From assembly GCA_947589595.1 (NCBI GenBank), contig CANQBV010000005.1:22602-86601 (forward strand): a stretch of 64,000 bases of DNA, written 5' to 3'. Every line of letters starts with the position of its first letter. Within the stretch, counting starts at the first letter, position 1. Under the pieces are notes generated by a model, which saw nothing but the letters and a program-made list of their open reading frames with translations, searched no databases and had not been told where the DNA came from. Positions 201 to 61,141 of this stretch are shown piece by piece. The translations under genes and the position numbers were made by a program. The DNA comes from an uncultured Clostridia bacterium. GTDB lineage: Bacteria; Bacillota; Clostridia; Oscillospirales; SIG627.

Positions 201-229
201 AAAAGCGGCACCGTTTTGGTGCCGCTTTT
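201..229. terminator. Intrinsic terminator after the ATPase gene
   Basis: AAAAGCGGCACC-gtttt-GGTGCCGCTTTT hairpin adjacent to the stop at 230. Confidence 0.85.
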
Positions 230-1303
230 TCATACGCCGATTTCCCGGGAAATACTCCGGATCATCTTTTCCAATTTTTCAAAATTCATTGACTGTACGT
301 AGATTTTTTCAATTTCCAGATGGGCGTTGTATGCATCTTTTAAGTTGCTGACTGCTTCGCCGGAAATGGCCTGATAGCACTTTTTCAGAAAGCGCAGCTT
401 TTCTTTGTTCTCGCGAAGCGAATCCTTATCCAGAAAACGCTGCATATTGATATATTTGATTTCTTTTCCCACTGTTTCAGTCCTGGCGTCCTTTTCCCCT
501 ACTTGCAGTGCAATACCGGCCTCCGGCAGGTAAAGAGCGTTGTAGGCTTCGGGAAACAGGCAGGAATGGCTTTTTACAAAGCTATGTCCGTTTTGCGCCA
601 AAAGGCCGGCGATTTCATTTAAAAAGAGAGGAGCCGTTCCAAAGTGATCCTGGACGATAGAAACCTTTTGTGCCTTTTCCTGAAAGCTCTGGTTTGCCAA
701 ATACCCTTTGTGGCTAAAAGATGCGATCAGGCGGGTGGAGATCTGCATCGCTACTTTTTGCTTCGGAATCGACTGCACGATCCGTTCGGCGGCTTTCTTC
801 ATTTTCTCGATTTTAAAGTTTTGCAAAGCAATGCTTTGAATTTCCCGGGCAATTTCACCGGCAGCACTCAGAAAACGGTATGCCAGGCGGTAAGAACGGC
901 TTTTTTCGCGGATGGATTCCATAATTGGTAATTTGTTGGCGATCAGTTTTTCCTGGTTCCAAAACGCGCCGGTATAGAGGATCGATTCCACTGCGCCGGG
1001 ATATTTCGGATCCGTCGTATGAGGGCTGGTGCCGTCCAGAATTGCGATTTTCTTTTCCTGAATCAAAATTCCGTCCAGCGAATCCGGGTCGGAAGAACAG
1101 TAAAAATATTCCACGTGGTAACCGGCGTCTTGCGCTTTCCGCGCAATTTTGAACATCAGGCTCGATTTTCCTGTGCCGGGACCGCCTTTAATGATGTAGA
1201 TTTTTTCCAGCGAATCCGGATCGAAAATTTCCGGGAAAAAACTTTGAAATCCTTTTGAGGTATTTGCGGAAGCATAGTATTTTTCGTTTTGTTCCAAAAT
1301 CAT
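230..1303 (-). CDS. P-loop ATPase, PRK06851-like family
   Basis: IKGGPGTGKS Walker A; YCSSDPDSLDG and DGTSPH motifs typical of this Firmicutes family; second half is a degenerate repeat. Confidence 0.75.
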   Translation of the reverse strand: MILEQNEKYYASANTSKGFQSFFPEIFDPDSLEKIYIIKGGPGTGKSSLMFKIARKAQDAGYHVEYFYCSSDPDSLDGILIQEKKIAILDGTSPHTTDPKYPGAVESILYTGAFWNQEKLIANKLPIMESIREKSRSYRLAYRFLSAAGEIAREIQSIALQNFKIEKMKKAAERIVQSIPKQKVAMQISTRLIASFSHKGYLANQSFQEKAQKVSIVQDHFGTAPLFLNEIAGLLAQNGHSFVKSHSCLFPEAYNALYLPEAGIALQVGEKDARTETVGKEIKYINMQRFLDKDSLRENKEKLRFLKKCYQAISGEAVSNLKDAYNAHLEIEKIYVQSMNFEKLEKMIRSISREIGV

Positions 1304-1334
1304 AAATGCGCCTCACTTCTTCAATACTTACTGT

Positions 1335-1361
1335 ATTTTATGAAAGTAAGGCGCATTTGTT
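1335..1361 (-). promoter_or_regulatory. Mother-cell (sigma-K/sigma-E type) promoter for the ATPase gene
   Basis: Minus strand AC-N16-CATAAAAT immediately after the pcrA stop. Confidence 0.5.
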
Positions 1362-1363
1362 AC

Positions 1364-3808
1364 TTATTTTGCTTTCTGTAAATTGGCGTAGGTTGCCATG
1401 AGCTTTTTTTCGCCTGCTTTGTCAAAGCGAATTTCATAGAGCGTATCCGAGCCATAGGACTTCGCCGAAAGAATGGTGCCGTCTCCGAAAATTCTGTGTG
1501 TGACCCGCTCCCCGGGACGGAAAACTTCCGACTTCTTTGAAGTGGGCGGCGTCGCGGCGGCGGTAACCGACGAAGACCCTGCACGTTGGAAACTGACGTC
1601 TTTTTGCCGAAATTGCGAAAAATTGCTGCCTTTTGCCTGAGAAAAGCGCGGCATTGCAAATTCCTGAAAGTCCGACTGACCGAAATAGTACCCGTCGGAG
1701 AGGGAGCGTTCTTTTGATGCAATATATTCGGCGTCGACGTAAGCATCCGGCAATTCTTCTACAAAGCGGGAAACGCGGTTGGAGTTTGTTTTTCCGAAAA
1801 GCAAACGTCTTTTGCAGAAGCTGATGTAGAGCTCTTCTTTGGCGCGCGTCATCGCAACGTAAAACAGCCGCCGTTCTTCTTCCAGATCCGAAAGTCGCAT
1901 AACGGACTGCGCCGAAGGAAATAGATTTTCCTCCACTCCCGGCAGAAATACAACAGGGAATTCCAGCCCTTTGGCGGCATGGATGGTCATCAATACCACC
2001 GCGTCGGATTCGCGGTCATAATTATCCACATCGCTCACCAGGGCGATCTCCTCCAAAAAGCCCTCCAAATTGGGCGCTTCGCTGCGTTCTTCATAGAAAC
2101 GGGCAGAAGAGATCAATTCATTAACATTTTTGCGGCGTTCTTCATTTTCATCCCCCAAAAGGGTATCCATATAACCGCTTTTGTCAATAACCTCATGTAC
2201 GATCTCCGAGGGAAGGTGATCTTCAGCGTATTCACGCAAAGAAAGAATCAGCTTGGTAAAAGCAAGAAAGCTACTGCTGTTGCGGGACAATTCGCGATAA
2301 GAGGTGCAGTCGCAAATAATTTCGAAAAAGCTTTTTCCCTGTGCTTCCGCTAAGTCGGTTGCTTTTTTGATCGCCGTTTCTCCGAGGCCTCGCTTCGGCA
2401 CGTTGATGACGCGCAAAAGACAGGCAAGATTATCCGGACAGGCGATGGCGCGTAAATAGGCGATGATATCCTTCACTTCAGCGTGCTCGTAAAAGCGCAT
2501 TCCCGCCAGCAAGCGGTGCGGCACGCCGGATTTCGTAAAAATTGTTTCCAGTGCGTTGGACTGTGCCCGGGTGCGGTAAAGCACTGCGAAATCCTTATAA
2601 CGGTGTTTCCCGCGCATAACCGCTTCGGAAATATGCTCTGCAATATAAATCGCTTCTTTTTCCTGATCCTCTAAATTGCGCAACATCACTTTTTGACCGT
2701 TCTCCTGCGCGCACCATAGCTTTTTACCTCTGCGGGTTTCGTTGTGAGCGATCACAGCGTTGGCAGCTTCAATAATATTTTTGGTAGAGCGATAGTTTTG
2801 TTCGAGAAAAACCACTTTTGTATCGGCAAAGTTCTGGTCAAAATTTAAAATGTTTTCCACCGCTGCCCCGCGAAATTTATAAATACTTTGGTCATCATCT
2901 CCAACCGCCATAATATTTCCATGTCCCTGCGCGATCAATTTCAAAAGCTGGTATTGAGCGCGGTTGGTATCTTGGTATTCATCTACCAAAAGGTAGCGGA
3001 ATTTATGCTGGCACCACGTCAAGGGCTCGCTGTTGTCGCGCAGCAGTTTGACCGTTTCGGCGATCAGATCGTCAAAATCCATGGCGTTGGCGTCTAAAAG
3101 CGCCTCCTGATAGCTTTTGAAAATCTCCGCAACGACTTTTCCCTTACTGCTGTTCTGCACTTTACTCTCGTATTCTTTGGGAGAGAGAAGGGCGTTTTTG
3201 GCGTTGGAGATCTGGTTCATTACATATTTTGCGGTCAATTCCGGGGTGTCGATTTCCATTTCCTTCATTTTGGCGGCAATGATGCGTTTGCAATCTTCCT
3301 GGTCATAAATCAGGAAGTTGGAGCCATACTGCGTATAGGAGGCAAACTGCCGCAAAAGACGCACGCAAACAGAGTGAAAGGTACCCGCCCAAATTTCATC
3401 GGCTCGGTCGCCGAGCTGTTTGCGCAGTCTTTCCTTCATTTCGCCCGCTGCTTTGTTGGTAAAGGTAATGGCTAAAATATGGTAAGCGGGGCACGCATCA
3501 TCGGCAAAAGATAAGAGGATCGGTTTTAAAATTTCACGGGTGCAAATTTCGGGATGATCGCAAAAATTTCGCAGAACGGCAATTTCTTCCGCGGAAGCGG
3601 AAATTTCTTTCTGAGAATAATAGGCGTTTCCAAATTCGATCAGATGAGAAATACGATTGACCAAAACCGTGGTCTTTCCGCTGCCGGCGCCGGCGATTAC
3701 CAAAAGCGGTCCCTTTACGAGAAAAACCGCTTCCTTTTGCTTGTCATTTAAATTTTGATAATAGATCTGAAATAATTTTTGCTTGATCTGCCTTAAATCC
3801 TGCTTCAT
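1364..3808 (-). CDS. pcrA: ATP-dependent DNA helicase PcrA/UvrD
   Basis: AGAGSGKT, ITFTNKAA, VDEYQD, VGDDDQSIY, NYRS, TIHAAKGLEF, EERRLFYVAMTRA; C-terminal Tudor-like domain (VTHRIFGDG). Confidence 0.95.
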   Translation of the reverse strand: MKQDLRQIKQKLFQIYYQNLNDKQKEAVFLVKGPLLVIAGAGSGKTTVLVNRISHLIEFGNAYYSQKEISASAEEIAVLRNFCDHPEICTREILKPILLSFADDACPAYHILAITFTNKAAGEMKERLRKQLGDRADEIWAGTFHSVCVRLLRQFASYTQYGSNFLIYDQEDCKRIIAAKMKEMEIDTPELTAKYVMNQISNAKNALLSPKEYESKVQNSSKGKVVAEIFKSYQEALLDANAMDFDDLIAETVKLLRDNSEPLTWCQHKFRYLLVDEYQDTNRAQYQLLKLIAQGHGNIMAVGDDDQSIYKFRGAAVENILNFDQNFADTKVVFLEQNYRSTKNIIEAANAVIAHNETRRGKKLWCAQENGQKVMLRNLEDQEKEAIYIAEHISEAVMRGKHRYKDFAVLYRTRAQSNALETIFTKSGVPHRLLAGMRFYEHAEVKDIIAYLRAIACPDNLACLLRVINVPKRGLGETAIKKATDLAEAQGKSFFEIICDCTSYRELSRNSSSFLAFTKLILSLREYAEDHLPSEIVHEVIDKSGYMDTLLGDENEERRKNVNELISSARFYEERSEAPNLEGFLEEIALVSDVDNYDRESDAVVLMTIHAAKGLEFPVVFLPGVEENLFPSAQSVMRLSDLEEERRLFYVAMTRAKEELYISFCKRRLLFGKTNSNRVSRFVEELPDAYVDAEYIASKERSLSDGYYFGQSDFQEFAMPRFSQAKGSNFSQFRQKDVSFQRAGSSSVTAAATPPTSKKSEVFRPGERVTHRIFGDGTILSAKSYGSDTLYEIRFDKAGEKKLMATYANLQKAK

Positions 3809-12100: not shown

Positions 12101-13293
12101 TTTTTGACCTGATCCTTGTCGAAAAAAGACAAAAAATCGATTTGGCCGATTTTGTTTGGTGCTTTGCGGCTTCCAAGCATCTGGCCTTTGCCGGTCATTT
12201 TTCGCAAGGGTATCAAAGCAGTGCGCGCGAAATTGATCTTTCCGGATCTGCGTTTGATTATCTGTGGCAGATCGCCGAGAAAAAGTACAGTCTTTCCGCG
12301 GTTTACGAAAACTCGCCTGCCATTACCGCAGTCAAAAGCGCACTCTGTAGAGCCGACCGTTCCGACTCCCGTTGCTATACCGTGCCCGACTCCGCGAAAT
12401 CCAAAGCGCTGCAGCTTATTTCCGTGCGTGGATTTTTTGATCAGGAAGTACCCTTGGCCAATATGCCGGAAGCAGAGGCGATCGTTGATGCCCTGATCCA
12501 AAATGCAGATATCCTGTCGGAAAAATCTGTCTCTGTAATTGCGGCGACCAAAGAGCAGAAGGAAGCGATCGTTCGGCTATTGGCGCAGAAGCTGTATCAG
12601 CAGAATTCTTTGGCGGAAAAAATGCTCGGCAGCGAAAAACACCTTTTCCTGTCTTCTTTGGAAGAAGAGATTCATTCTGCCGACATCGTCTATTTTTCCA
12701 CGGTATTTGCGGTAGACCGCAGTACCTACGGCTCGCGCTTGCCGCACCTGTTTTCCCAGTCTTTCGGTACTTTGCCGAAGGCCCAGCTTTCCGCGGTGGT
12801 ATCGGCGGCTCGTGAAAAAATCCATATTGTAACCAGCTTTTCTTCTGAGGACCTTAGTTATTCTCCGTCGATTATCAACGCCGACTCCTCGTTTGCGCTT
12901 TTCTATCAGCTTGCGCTGGCGCCGGCGTCCAATTCCAGCTATATAGCCGGTACTTCTCCGGTGGGGAGCAGCTTTGTAAAGCGTCTGGAGTCGGAATTAG
13001 TGCAGCAGGGCTATTGCGTTGAGTCCGGCGTACAGAGCGGCCGGTATTATATTGACCTTGCAGTGAAAGACAAAAGTGGCAATTTTGTACTCGGTATTAT
13101 TTCCGACCAATCGGTAATGAACCAAAAAGCGCACATTTCCGCGATCGAAATGCAAAATGAAGCTGCCTTTTCCAAGTGTGGCTGGCAAATCTATCGGTTG
13201 CGCAGCACCGATTGCTTTGACCGCTTTGAGCGAGAACTGGATCATATCCTTGCCATTTTAAACCCGCCTGCCGAAGAAATCGATTGGATCTAG
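9109..13293 (+). CDS. Degenerate DUF4011/DUF3320-family SF1 helicase-like protein (transglutaminase-like N-terminus, helicase remnants, Vsr/REase-like C-terminus)
   Basis: LAFFVTPNQPEV, RLRLP..IL, VDLAAAR..LIPLP.R, KNVLYI, YPC..FDLILV, IDLAV..LGIISD..GWQIYRL follow the family layout; catalytic residues are substituted. Confidence 0.7.
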   Translation: MIKASFFHKKVYSFGIYHAGYSLFDSILLQNLEDAPLSYLKISVKTIPNVILHAECEIPFLAPEGFSVISGDFIQPAPEKLVSLREITMVRVLLSVSDQEGQTLYSSESSLTLLPYDHFAGYLTYAESLAFFVTPNQPEVQEISATLKGLNTNNAVHTLYNGIKEKKLTYAAENYFDSAPCRLRLPELILQRRGGNALELCVLFSSVMEALGKSCVLISTPKGKSFVGIETESHQNPMVTVMTKQRKNLDGYLFLDGSYLAYGSELSYDNAIYRSKHFLEMTDEKLIMVDLAAARKMHLIPLPNRVWEESGSVLSAAREGESSGNFSEYLALMQRYSSDSRITSVLTGKKLYITTAKNAPLFDADLDVNQNKLLNKILNSDFTLIRAQHGTGATTLFSHAAFYALKSKKNVLYIPDEGYNSADFANTCASFFDPAFVLDLTSRSYSSVRNVKEEEFNGIFEEHQNIFDEKDAIRTSFEEMDRYYAALEGSKGITSSFLAASDRYHQFRDASASLVFSPEQIGLLNEKMAQQWFATLSEALKCAEEAGGVFENPLEFIRQKDFSYELKSKLISQLENLLHSVELIIDLRDRVLSRLASPIKLNSVARLQAFCDLTKIFLEFESIPTAFFENQPEIEENFQKLTKLIQAKIENEQIEEIISISFEPTIFELPAEENHSRWKELSGDKSLKGMSQRYSLQKNIKRYLRPNCDVKNIEYVLSRLAAYQRNLVLIEETTPLALHLTDVDVSVGEEEREHLKEIADLCYQGYVIFAANFPNENIGILISDIASYLKDEDFVSSCRELRNRYEDFISNKQSFEWTALNDLDRYSSRFMTESDDYFSCLYAELTKIFAAMNRLNSWCAWLFQRDACLHIGLKNVVLALETGSILPQDMKKAFLRAFFKGICEYNFISHPELVPGKFDFEEKKEIIRQAKGRLLAFQKAELDSMLSIEKLNARNELPQNRDLQDLIENDPQSFCAIYPCVIADMKTAKELFAEKIGLFDLILVEKRQKIDLADFVWCFAASKHLAFAGHFSQGYQSSAREIDLSGSAFDYLWQIAEKKYSLSAVYENSPAITAVKSALCRADRSDSRCYTVPDSAKSKALQLISVRGFFDQEVPLANMPEAEAIVDALIQNADILSEKSVSVIAATKEQKEAIVRLLAQKLYQQNSLAEKMLGSEKHLFLSSLEEEIHSADIVYFSTVFAVDRSTYGSRLPHLFSQSFGTLPKAQLSAVVSAAREKIHIVTSFSSEDLSYSPSIINADSSFALFYQLALAPASNSSYIAGTSPVGSSFVKRLESELVQQGYCVESGVQSGRYYIDLAVKDKSGNFVLGIISDQSVMNQKAHISAIEMQNEAAFSKCGWQIYRLRSTDCFDRFERELDHILAILNPPAEEIDWI

Positions 13294-13321
13294 CATAAAT
13301 TTTCATCCGCACCCATACAAT
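13293..13321 (+). promoter_or_regulatory. sigma-E-type promoter
   Basis: GCATA(aa)-N16-CATACAAT. Confidence 0.65.
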
Positions 13322-13343
13322 GCTAGCGAAAGGAGTGGATGAA

Positions 13344-13769
13344 ATGGATACGCAAAAAAAGGAAAAAAATCCGATTCAGATCCCGTTTTTATGCCTGTCT
13401 CTGGCGATTTTTATTGCCGTCTTTTTTGTGCTTCAATTGATTTTTACTTTTATACTTTCCAAAATCAATCATTATGAAAACTTTTATTCTGTTTTTTATT
13501 ACGCCAGCTATCTTTTAGCGGGGCTTCTTCTGGCCGTCTTAGCAAAACACACCAAGGAAGCGGCGTTTCTGCATGTGATCTTGCTTTCGCTTTTGAGTGT
13601 TCTGGTTTTGTTTGGCATTGGTATTTTACTCGGCGGAAATCAGTTCGATTTTAAATCTTTCGCCATCGGCGCGGTGATTTTGGTTGGTTCTGCCTGCCTG
13701 TTCCTGTTTTTGCTGGGACTCTTGAAGCAAAAGAAAAAGAAAGGAAATTCCAAATTTAAATTTCGATAA
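13344..13769 (+). CDS. Four-TM membrane protein, possibly TIGR04086/YrzE-like
   Basis: Four hydrophobic segments and a basic tail; RBS AGGAG at 13331; sigma-E-type promoter. Confidence 0.6.
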   Translation: MDTQKKEKNPIQIPFLCLSLAIFIAVFFVLQLIFTFILSKINHYENFYSVFYYASYLLAGLLLAVLAKHTKEAAFLHVILLSLLSVLVLFGIGILLGGNQFDFKSFAIGAVILVGSACLFLFLLGLLKQKKKKGNSKFKFR

Positions 13770-60674: not shown

Positions 60675-61093
60675 CCGCATTTGTGGTGATCGCGGCGCTG
60701 TATTTCGGTCCGGAAGCAGGATTTATTGTCGGAGCGCTGAGCGCTGTGATTTCAAATTTTTATTTCGGTCAGGGCCCATGGACGCCGTTTCAGATGGCGA
60801 CCTGGGGATTTCTTGGCCTGATCGCGGGAATATTTTCCGCGCCTTTGAAAAAAAACAGAATTCTTTTACTCCTCTACGGCGCTGTTTCCGGCGTTCTGTA
60901 TTCTTGCTTTATGGATCTGTGGACAGTGCTTTGGGCAGATGGAACCATTCTTCTTTCCCGCTATTTTGCGGCACTGATCAGCGGACTTCCTTTCACAGTT
61001 CTCTATGCGGTTTCCAATGTGGCGTTTCTGTTTTTCCTTGCAAAACCGATCGGTAAAATACTGGAGCGAATTCAAACAAAATACGGCCTATAA
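60671..61093 (+). pseudogene. ECF S component (CbrT-like), N-terminally truncated
   Basis: VTA..FGPEAGF.VG..SNFYFGQGPWTPFQM; no RBS and no N-terminal helices. Confidence 0.7.
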
Positions 61094-61128
61094 AAAAATC
61101 TCTCTTTGAAACCAAAGAGAGATTTTTT
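61093..61128. terminator. Bidirectional terminator
   Basis: AAAAAATCTCTCTTTG/CAAAGAGAGATTTTTT. Confidence 0.85.
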
Positions 61129-61141
61129 CATTCTTACAAGC

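Follow-up and report, generated by a model that had tools for sequence, protein, structure and literature searches.

What becomes of transcripts of a housekeeping gene that run on into a sporulation gene lying directly behind it? The question is raised by a junction on the minus strand of the 64,000-nucleotide stretch of DNA analysed here (the window), where pcrA, a co-directional unit able to read in, ends 60 nt upstream of a gene for a P-loop NTPase. A sequence-only reading of this junction had proposed that pcrA transcription runs on unterminated, and that a hairpin, in which the spacer of a sporulation promoter serves as anti-Shine-Dalgarno sequence, would keep the read-through mRNA untranslated but not a transcript starting in the loop. 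This interpretation is partly supported by the results described below.

Genes flanking the junction and the host genome

The product of pcrA matches TIGR01073 (PcrA) with an E value of 1.3e-225 and 751 bits, under the equivalog cut-off of 911, and carries the Pfam domains UvrD-helicase, UvrD_C and PcrA_UvrD_tudor (the last at residues 766-812). For the downstream product the best model is NF005320 (E 2.9e-60, 204 bits, residues 4-354), the score again being below the equivalog cut-off (556); its P-loop, GGPGTGKS, is invariant in the alignment of the NTPases. Members of the PRK06851 family have been named "dual-wield NTPases", and the Clostridioides difficile member is CD3298 (PMC10949312). 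CD3298 is described as required for the accumulation of CaDPA in C. difficile spores (PMC10949312, PMC10449524), and it is lower in a sigE mutant and listed with a sigE promoter (PMC3789822, Table 2).

A canonical terminator lies 3′ of the NTPase gene (Table 1). It was read from the sequence, the simple terminator scan having failed to list it. The gene is therefore monocistronic, and it needs either a promoter of its own or read-through from pcrA.

The host assembly measures 1.43 Mb and is 85.65% complete; the named relatives are MAGs of Oscillospiraceae, Acutalibacteraceae and Ruminococcus. The genome encodes Spo0A (above cut-off) and SpoIVA, a SigK of subfamily NF004471 (270 bits, above the cut-off of 252) and a SigE-like protein scoring 328 bits against a cut-off of 339. 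SpoIIID, DpaA and SpoIID were not found with NCBIfam models, which in an assembly of this completeness is no evidence of absence.

Table 1. Features of the pcrA-NTPase junction and its flanking genes (positions in the window)
Feature	Sequence	Position	Strand	Basis
pcrA, 814 aa, upstream, co-directional		1364..3808	(-)	stop TAA 1366-1364
Putative -35 element of a sigma-K-type promoter, 16 nt 5′ of CATA	AC	1359..1360	(-)	sequence
Hairpin 5′ arm, identical with the promoter spacer (anti-SD)	AAATGCGCCTTACTTT	1343..1358	(-)	sequence, fold, covariation, spacer shuffle
Putative -10 box of a mother-cell (sigK/sigE-type) promoter, in the loop	CATAAAATA	1334..1342	(-)	sequence, orthologs
Inner 5-bp helix with 5-nt apical loop; predicted TSS (about 1328) inside	AAUAC/GUAUU	1323..1337	(-)	MFE structure
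Hairpin 3′ arm, holds the SD and ends at the start codon	GAAGTGAGGCGCATTT	1304..1319	(-)	sequence, fold, accessibility
U-rich stretch after the stem base, possible terminator tail	AUUUAUGAUUUUGG	1293..1306	(-)	includes ATG 1303-1301
PRK06851-family P-loop NTPase ("dual-wield NTPase", CD3298-like), 357 aa		230..1303	(-)	NF005320
Canonical terminator 3′ of the NTPase gene	GCGGCACC-AAAAC-GGTGCCGC, then TTTT	201..225	(-)	read from sequence

A long hairpin covers the ribosome binding site

In the order of the minus strand, the stop codon TAA of pcrA is followed by GTAACA, AAATGCGCCTTACTTT, CATAAAATA, the remainder of the loop, GAAGTGAGGCGCATTT and the ATG of the NTPase gene. The two arms pair in the minus-strand RNA (1358-1343 with 1319-1304) as 16 contiguous pairs, 14 of them Watson-Crick and two U-G; read on the plus strand, the two U-G pairs are C-A mismatches. 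The SD core GAGG stands at 1314-1311, and the 3′ arm extends to the ATG. The stem, the strand dependence of its two non-Watson-Crick pairs and its extension over the RBS as far as the start codon are thus as the sequence-only reading had described them.

The RNA of positions 1375-1290 (minus strand) folds with -28.1 kcal/mol, at z -6.46 against 200 dinucleotide shuffles (mean -11.56, sd 2.56), of which none equalled the native value. The plus-strand RNA folds more weakly (-23.8 kcal/mol, z -5.85). In the MFE structure an inner helix pairs 1337-1333 with 1327-1323 and narrows the 23-nt loop to an apical loop of 5 nt. Rfam gave no family match for the hairpin, the best being a miRNA precursor at 25.5 bits, where the gathering score is 60, that is, a generic hairpin.

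Complementarity between the upstream region and the SD was compared with that of 546 control genes, taken from rough gene calls on the same genome and restricted to those that have a good SD and an upstream region that is intergenic. In these whole-upstream duplex tests the upstream window ran from -100 to -23 and the SD window from -20 to +3, positions -22 and -21 being omitted. The locus ranked second, at z -5.85; the first-ranked gene of the 546 is an apparent terminator beside a false start. A local shuffle of the spacer at the locus gave p = 0.0025. Raw genome-wide duplex energies were dropped, since they are confounded by GC-rich coding sequence and by false starts from the crude gene calls, and z-scores on genes with intergenic upstream regions were used in their place.

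The two transcript isoforms were also folded. Opening of positions 1319-1301 was computed to cost 21.3-22.4 kcal/mol in RNAs that start at 1453, 1403 or 1366, as against 6.2-6.8 kcal/mol in RNAs that start at 1330-1324, a difference of about 15 kcal/mol between long and loop-started RNAs. Within the limits of the folding model, this accessibility gap is the computed basis for a selective silencing of long transcripts, and it agrees with what the sequence-only reading would lead one to expect of the two isoforms.

The hairpin is conserved and covaries within the genus

In a search of 41 related genomes the NTPase turned up in 34. Among the 30 NTPase loci returned, pcrA lies directly upstream in 16, namely the 15 loci of the genus (the window's own included) and L019. 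The NTPase proteins of the genus are just 38-45% identical to that of the window. The same hairpin fold is present in all 15 intergenic regions of the genus, with energies from -23 to -32 kcal/mol.

RNAalifold returned 12 consensus pairs for these 15 loci, four of them with compensatory double changes, counts which overstate the number of independent events since the genus sequences are related. Column pair 15/61, for example, is CG in seven loci, UA in two, AU in two and GC in one. The outer helix (helix 1) comprises the 12 pairs, and 95.6% of its cells are paired. Its covariation score of 0.208 compares with 0.148 after shuffling, none of 500 shuffles scored as high, and every slid register scored below the true one. 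In the MAFFT alignment (A3), L001 and L002 are 1-2 columns out of register, an error that lowers the pair counts and does not raise them. The covariation between spacer and SD that would be expected of a selected pairing was accordingly found in the orthologous intergenic regions.

The 180 cells of helix 1 include 30 G-U and three A-C or C-A combinations. Over the 30 loci, inside and outside the genus, that have significant spacer-SD pairing, the sense duplex is stronger than the antisense duplex in 27. The covariation and the G-U excess indicate that the structure is selected in sense-strand RNA and not in DNA or in antisense RNA. The inner helix is paired in 83% of cells across the 15 orthologs and has no double changes; its sequence and that of the loop are strongly conserved in the genus.

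A putative mother-cell promoter has its -10 box in the loop

The element AC-N16-CATAAAATA matches the sigK pattern, with AC at -35, a spacer of 16-17 nt and CATAnnnTA at -10. The 5′ arm of the hairpin is exactly the 16-nt spacer of this element, a coincidence pointed out already in the sequence-only reading. CATAnnnT[AG] occurs at the loop position in 15 of 15 genus orthologs, and by manual count AC stands 16-17 nt 5′ of CATA in 12 of them and GC in the other three. Outside the genus, 75 of 92 distinct orthologs have a [CA]ATAnnnT box 28-62 nt 5′ of the start, those with a hairpin and those without alike.

Two promoters of the same genome bear on the identity of the box. Upstream of spoIVA stands GTCATA-N-CATACATT, a textbook sigE-type pattern, and sigK is preceded by GCATATACTG, with the box CATATACTG. 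From the boxes of spoIVA and sigK, CATA boxes are taken to be mother-cell -10 elements of this organism. The spoIVA promoter (L124 2990-3050, minus strand, contig C6) offers an internal standard against which other mother-cell promoters of the organism can be compared.

The sigK consensus used here follows PMC3789822 in part. In C. difficile, sigE and sigK have a common -10 and differ at -35, with ATA for sigE and AC for sigK (PMC3789822). The AC at -35 would favour sigK over sigE at this locus; in contrast, the C. difficile ortholog is listed as sigE-dependent (PMC3789822). The promoter may also be one for sigE.

Alternatively, these bases match the sigma-A consensus TTGACA-17-TATAAT at 9 of 12 positions (GTAACA-17-TAAAAT), which would make a weak promoter of that type. 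The invariant CA before TA appears to fit sigE/K boxes better than sigma-A. TTGACA-like -35 boxes occur in several distant orthologs and, together with the sigma-A reading, speak against taking sporulation-specific initiation as certain. We infer a start site near 1328, inside the loop, placed by the -10 to +1 spacing that we take to be usual.

The hairpin has features of a terminator

The sequence-only reading had seen no terminator after pcrA. This stood in so far as a simple scan (loops of 3-8 nt) gave no terminator-like site between the two genes on the minus strand, so that no separate canonical terminator was called. It did not stand for the hairpin itself, which has an A-run before it, a GC-rich stem base (GCGCC/GGCGC) and a U-rich tail after it. 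The 23-nt loop is beyond the usual terminator range, but would be reduced to an apical 5 nt if the inner helix forms.

A T-run of at least 4 directly before the ATG is present in 13 of the 15 genus loci, where it is 4-7 long, as against 7.1% of the 546 control genes. At L007 a T6 run is kept though the upstream bases cannot pair with it. The window's own copy, TTT-ATG-ATTTT, has the second weakest T-run of the genus, for which reason termination in this copy may be poor, and its U-tract is interrupted by the start codon. Of the 30 loci with significant spacer-SD pairing, 20 have a co-directional ORF that ends no more than 71 nt upstream; 16 of these have the T-run of at least 4, as against 1 of the other 10 (Fisher p 4e-4). 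By this pattern the hairpin looks like a terminator in those compact loci that have no room for a separate one. Since the hairpin is terminator-like, and clearly so in relatives, read-through may be partly stopped and not just silenced.

A covariance model of the hairpin recovers the orthologous elements of L045, L040, L062 and L099. The same model matches, with 25 bits, a canonical bidirectional terminator in the window at 61089-61135, the stem of which (TCTCTCTTT/AAAGAGAGA) resembles the arms of the genus hairpins. It was rejected as a specific detector of the hairpin, as canonical terminators match it too. The terminator at 61089-61135, AAAAAATCTCTCTTT-GGTTT-CAAAGAGAGATTTTTTT, lies between convergent ORFs.

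Recurrence of spacer-SD pairing outside the genus and elsewhere in the genome

With the whole upstream region shuffled, the upstream/SD duplex was significant at p<=0.05 in 38 of 108 orthologous loci and at p<=0.01 in 23. For the non-genus loci the same test gave z<=-2 in 23 of 92 and z<=-3 in 9 of 92, compared with 43 and 12 of the 546 controls. With shuffling confined to the spacer, p<=0.01 was obtained at every one of the 15 genus loci; outside the genus this level was reached by 8 of the 75 loci with a box, and p<=0.05 by 15 of the 75. In about 10-20% of the more distant orthologs, then, spacer and SD of the same locus pair with each other. The remaining 60 boxed loci show no significant pairing, and 17 further non-genus loci have no recognisable box. 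As most distant orthologs are without significant spacer-SD pairing, the device is not essential to the NTPase family.

Cognate spacer/SD pairs reach -15 kcal/mol or lower in 14.7% of cases, as against 1.2% of 1110 non-cognate cross pairs. The arms of the strong non-genus cases are quite unlike one another in sequence, and the genes upstream are likewise varied: acetate kinase (L040), GalT (L088), a PBP (L062), a sigma factor (L027) and an unassigned ORF (L045). At L024, L019, L064 and L020 a separate canonical terminator lies upstream, and the spacer-SD pairing is still there without a T-run. From the variety of upstream genes and arms it follows that the module belongs to the NTPase gene, SD occlusion being its common element. 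Whole-upstream duplexes with z<=-2 are associated with a co-directional ORF that ends within 120 nt: they are found in 15 of 41 such loci and in 8 of the remaining 51 (p = 0.02, one-sided Fisher test).

The gene directly upstream at L027 (481-1398, plus strand) is that of the sigma factor, a member of the sigma-70 family in which regions 2, 3 and 4 are all present, and no separate terminator stands there ahead of the NTPase promoter hairpin. At L064 (2549-2606) and L110 (2555-2612) a hairpin is seen 3′ of the NTPase gene, arranged as A-run/GCCTCTGCC...GGCAGAGGC/T-run with CATA in the loop and followed by TTG. It is probably the terminator of the NTPase gene, and possibly another promoter-in-hairpin module.

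In the window's own genome, spacer-SD pairing at p<=0.01 was found at 3 of 21 CATA-box genes and at 3 of 525 controls. A whole-region shuffle had seemed to back the rule that all CATA-box promoters of the genome carry anti-SD spacers (median z -1.2 vs 0.07, Mann-Whitney p 9e-6); the spacer-only shuffle leaves just these 3 of 21, and the rule was rejected. Spacer/SD pairing is a recurrent device and not a rule.

The second case in this genome lies in the window at 13294-13346 (plus strand), directly behind a 1394-aa ORF that ends at 13293. The SD AAGGAG is at 13330-13335 and the ATG at 13344; the elements are TTCATCCGCAC (13302-13312), CATACAATG (13314-13322) and GAGTGGATGAA (13333-13343), and the local shuffle of spacer against SD gave p = 0.01. 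The third, L116 (outside the window, contig C6, 15872-16560), precedes a 178-aa ORF without NCBIfam match that starts at C6:16408 (minus strand). There AC-N-CATAGAATG stands upstream, and GGGAGGCGGGG, at the SD, is the pairing partner of the spacer CCCCGCTTTCCC (z -4.1; p 0.01 in the local shuffle). Sigma-A-like promoters with a spacer or -10 flank complementary to the SD were observed at L120 (C14, start 21536, minus strand) and L121 (C13, start 35422, plus strand), one of the two being TTGACA-N17-TACACT before a QueG-like gene and the other having TATAAT in the loop before a D-Ala-D-Ala carboxypeptidase gene.

Comparison with known systems

In Bacillus subtilis a large read-through hairpin is described for sigG (spoIIIG), and transcripts started at the sporulation promoter of sigG itself are unable to form it (PMC5942855); the analogy drawn in the sequence-only reading agrees with this description. 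The logic is the same at the pcrA-NTPase junction, again with a sporulation gene as target. The two differ in that the target is a sigma factor gene in B. subtilis and an NTPase gene here, with a sigF/sigG compartment in the one case and a mother-cell-type box in the other. Unlike at sigG, a housekeeping gene of vegetative growth lies upstream, the 5′ arm is exactly the spacer of the promoter, the -10 box lies in the loop, and a U-rich tail suggests an added role as terminator. The support also differs, that for the NTPase hairpin being comparative, through covariation.

IS10/Tn10 is protected from external promoters, the subject of a 1985 paper by Davis, Simons and Kleckner, by a fold-back inhibition of read-through transcripts: RNAs that enter from outside reportedly pair a segment of their upstream part with the region of the translation start, and the element's own transcript, which starts inside this structure, is said to escape. 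The gene there is the transposase gene of a mobile element and here a chromosomal developmental gene, and no homology is implied. By analogy, the pcrA-NTPase hairpin would be a further member of the sigG/IS10 class of read-through-silencing hairpins.

The hairpin resembles intrinsic terminators in its A-run, GC-rich stem base and U-rich tract. It departs from them in its loop of 23 nt, closed to 5 nt just by an inner helix with internal loops, in holding a putative promoter -10 box and an RBS, and in a U-tract that in the window's own copy is split by the start codon. Compared with sigK and sigE promoters (AC or ATA at -35, CATA-type -10), the putative promoter fits the sigK pattern, and the C. 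difficile ortholog is listed under sigE.

Explanations of the hairpin

On balance, the hairpin is probably a read-through insulator of the NTPase gene that combines occlusion of the RBS with probable termination and carries a mother-cell promoter in its loop. RNAs begun upstream, by read-through from pcrA, would carry both arms and form the long hairpin, which would bury the SD, reach the AUG and leave these RNAs poorly translatable. With the GC-rich base and U-rich tail, part of them would probably be ended at the start codon or shortly after it. In sporulating cells transcription would be started in the loop, at about 1328, by a sigma factor of the mother cell (sigK by the -35, with sigE as a possibility). 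As the 5′ arm is absent from such an mRNA, it would neither terminate nor hide its RBS.

A hairpin that blocks ribosome binding only, under unterminated transcription from pcrA as the sequence-only reading had it, would explain why the window's own copy has a mere TTT before the ATG, why the simple scan called no canonical terminator and why opening energies differ by so much between long and loop-started RNAs. Several distant orthologs, moreover, pair spacer and SD without a T-run, some of them (L024, L019, L064 and L020) behind a separate terminator, by which SD occlusion is the feature common to all. Yet the GC-rich stem base is followed by a T-run of 4-7 in nearly all genus members, far above the frequency in control genes, L007 retains its T6 without a pairing partner, and T-runs track the compact arrangements that lack room for a terminator; a pure translational silencer is therefore unlikely. 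The opposite simplification, an ordinary intrinsic terminator of pcrA that, in a compact genome, happens to be overlaid by the promoter and RBS of the next gene, with an occlusion that has no selected role, is more doubtful. It would account for the A-run, GC-rich stem and T-run, for the match of the covariance model to a canonical terminator with a stem like the genus arms, and it suits a small genome (1.43 Mb at 85.65% completeness). Against it, the module accompanies the NTPase gene behind five different upstream genes, the pairing is kept at L024, L064 and L019 despite a separate terminator before the promoter and without a T-run, and the stem continues through the SD to the start codon.

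The strong conservation of the loop sequence and of the inner helix could be that of a regulatory leader in the native mRNA, with a TSS upstream of 1358 and CATA as a loop motif, where a sporulation signal or protein opens the hairpin or prevents termination. This we consider improbable: the [CA]ATAnnnT box precedes most non-genus orthologs with or without a hairpin, like boxes precede spoIVA and sigK in the same genome, Rfam gave no family match, and the sequence just upstream of the hairpin is pcrA coding sequence. Least credible of all is an inverted repeat acting at the DNA level, as operator of a dimeric regulator or as cruciform. In plain coordinates the arrangement is indeed symmetric, both arms flanking the -10 box and the expected TSS, but the arm sequences vary while their complementarity is retained, and the G-U excess (30 cells against three A-C) and the stronger sense duplexes (27 of 30 loci) point to sense-strand RNA and not to duplex DNA or a protein site. 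The insulator with both occlusion and probable termination is the explanation that we retain.

Significance

The hairpin provides a comparative, covariation-backed case of a promoter spacer doubling as an anti-SD sequence, a device for which experimental cases, such as sigG and IS10, have so far been few. Its notable points are this comparative support and the overlay of a terminator-like element, a putative promoter and an RBS in 60 nt. Such an overlay is relevant to the annotation of operons and promoters in uncultured gut Clostridia, and to the design of compact insulators. The results predict selection against expression of the CD3298-type NTPase in vegetative cells.

Different lineages have the design behind different genes (pcrA, acetate kinase, GalT, an unassigned ORF). 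We suggest, tentatively, that small-genome Oscillospirales may possess a portable "promoter-inside-terminator" cassette of about 60 nt that travels with certain mother-cell sporulation genes, in which one hairpin would terminate the upstream vegetative gene, silence read-through and house the promoter. If this were true, a developmental gene could be inserted directly behind any housekeeping gene.
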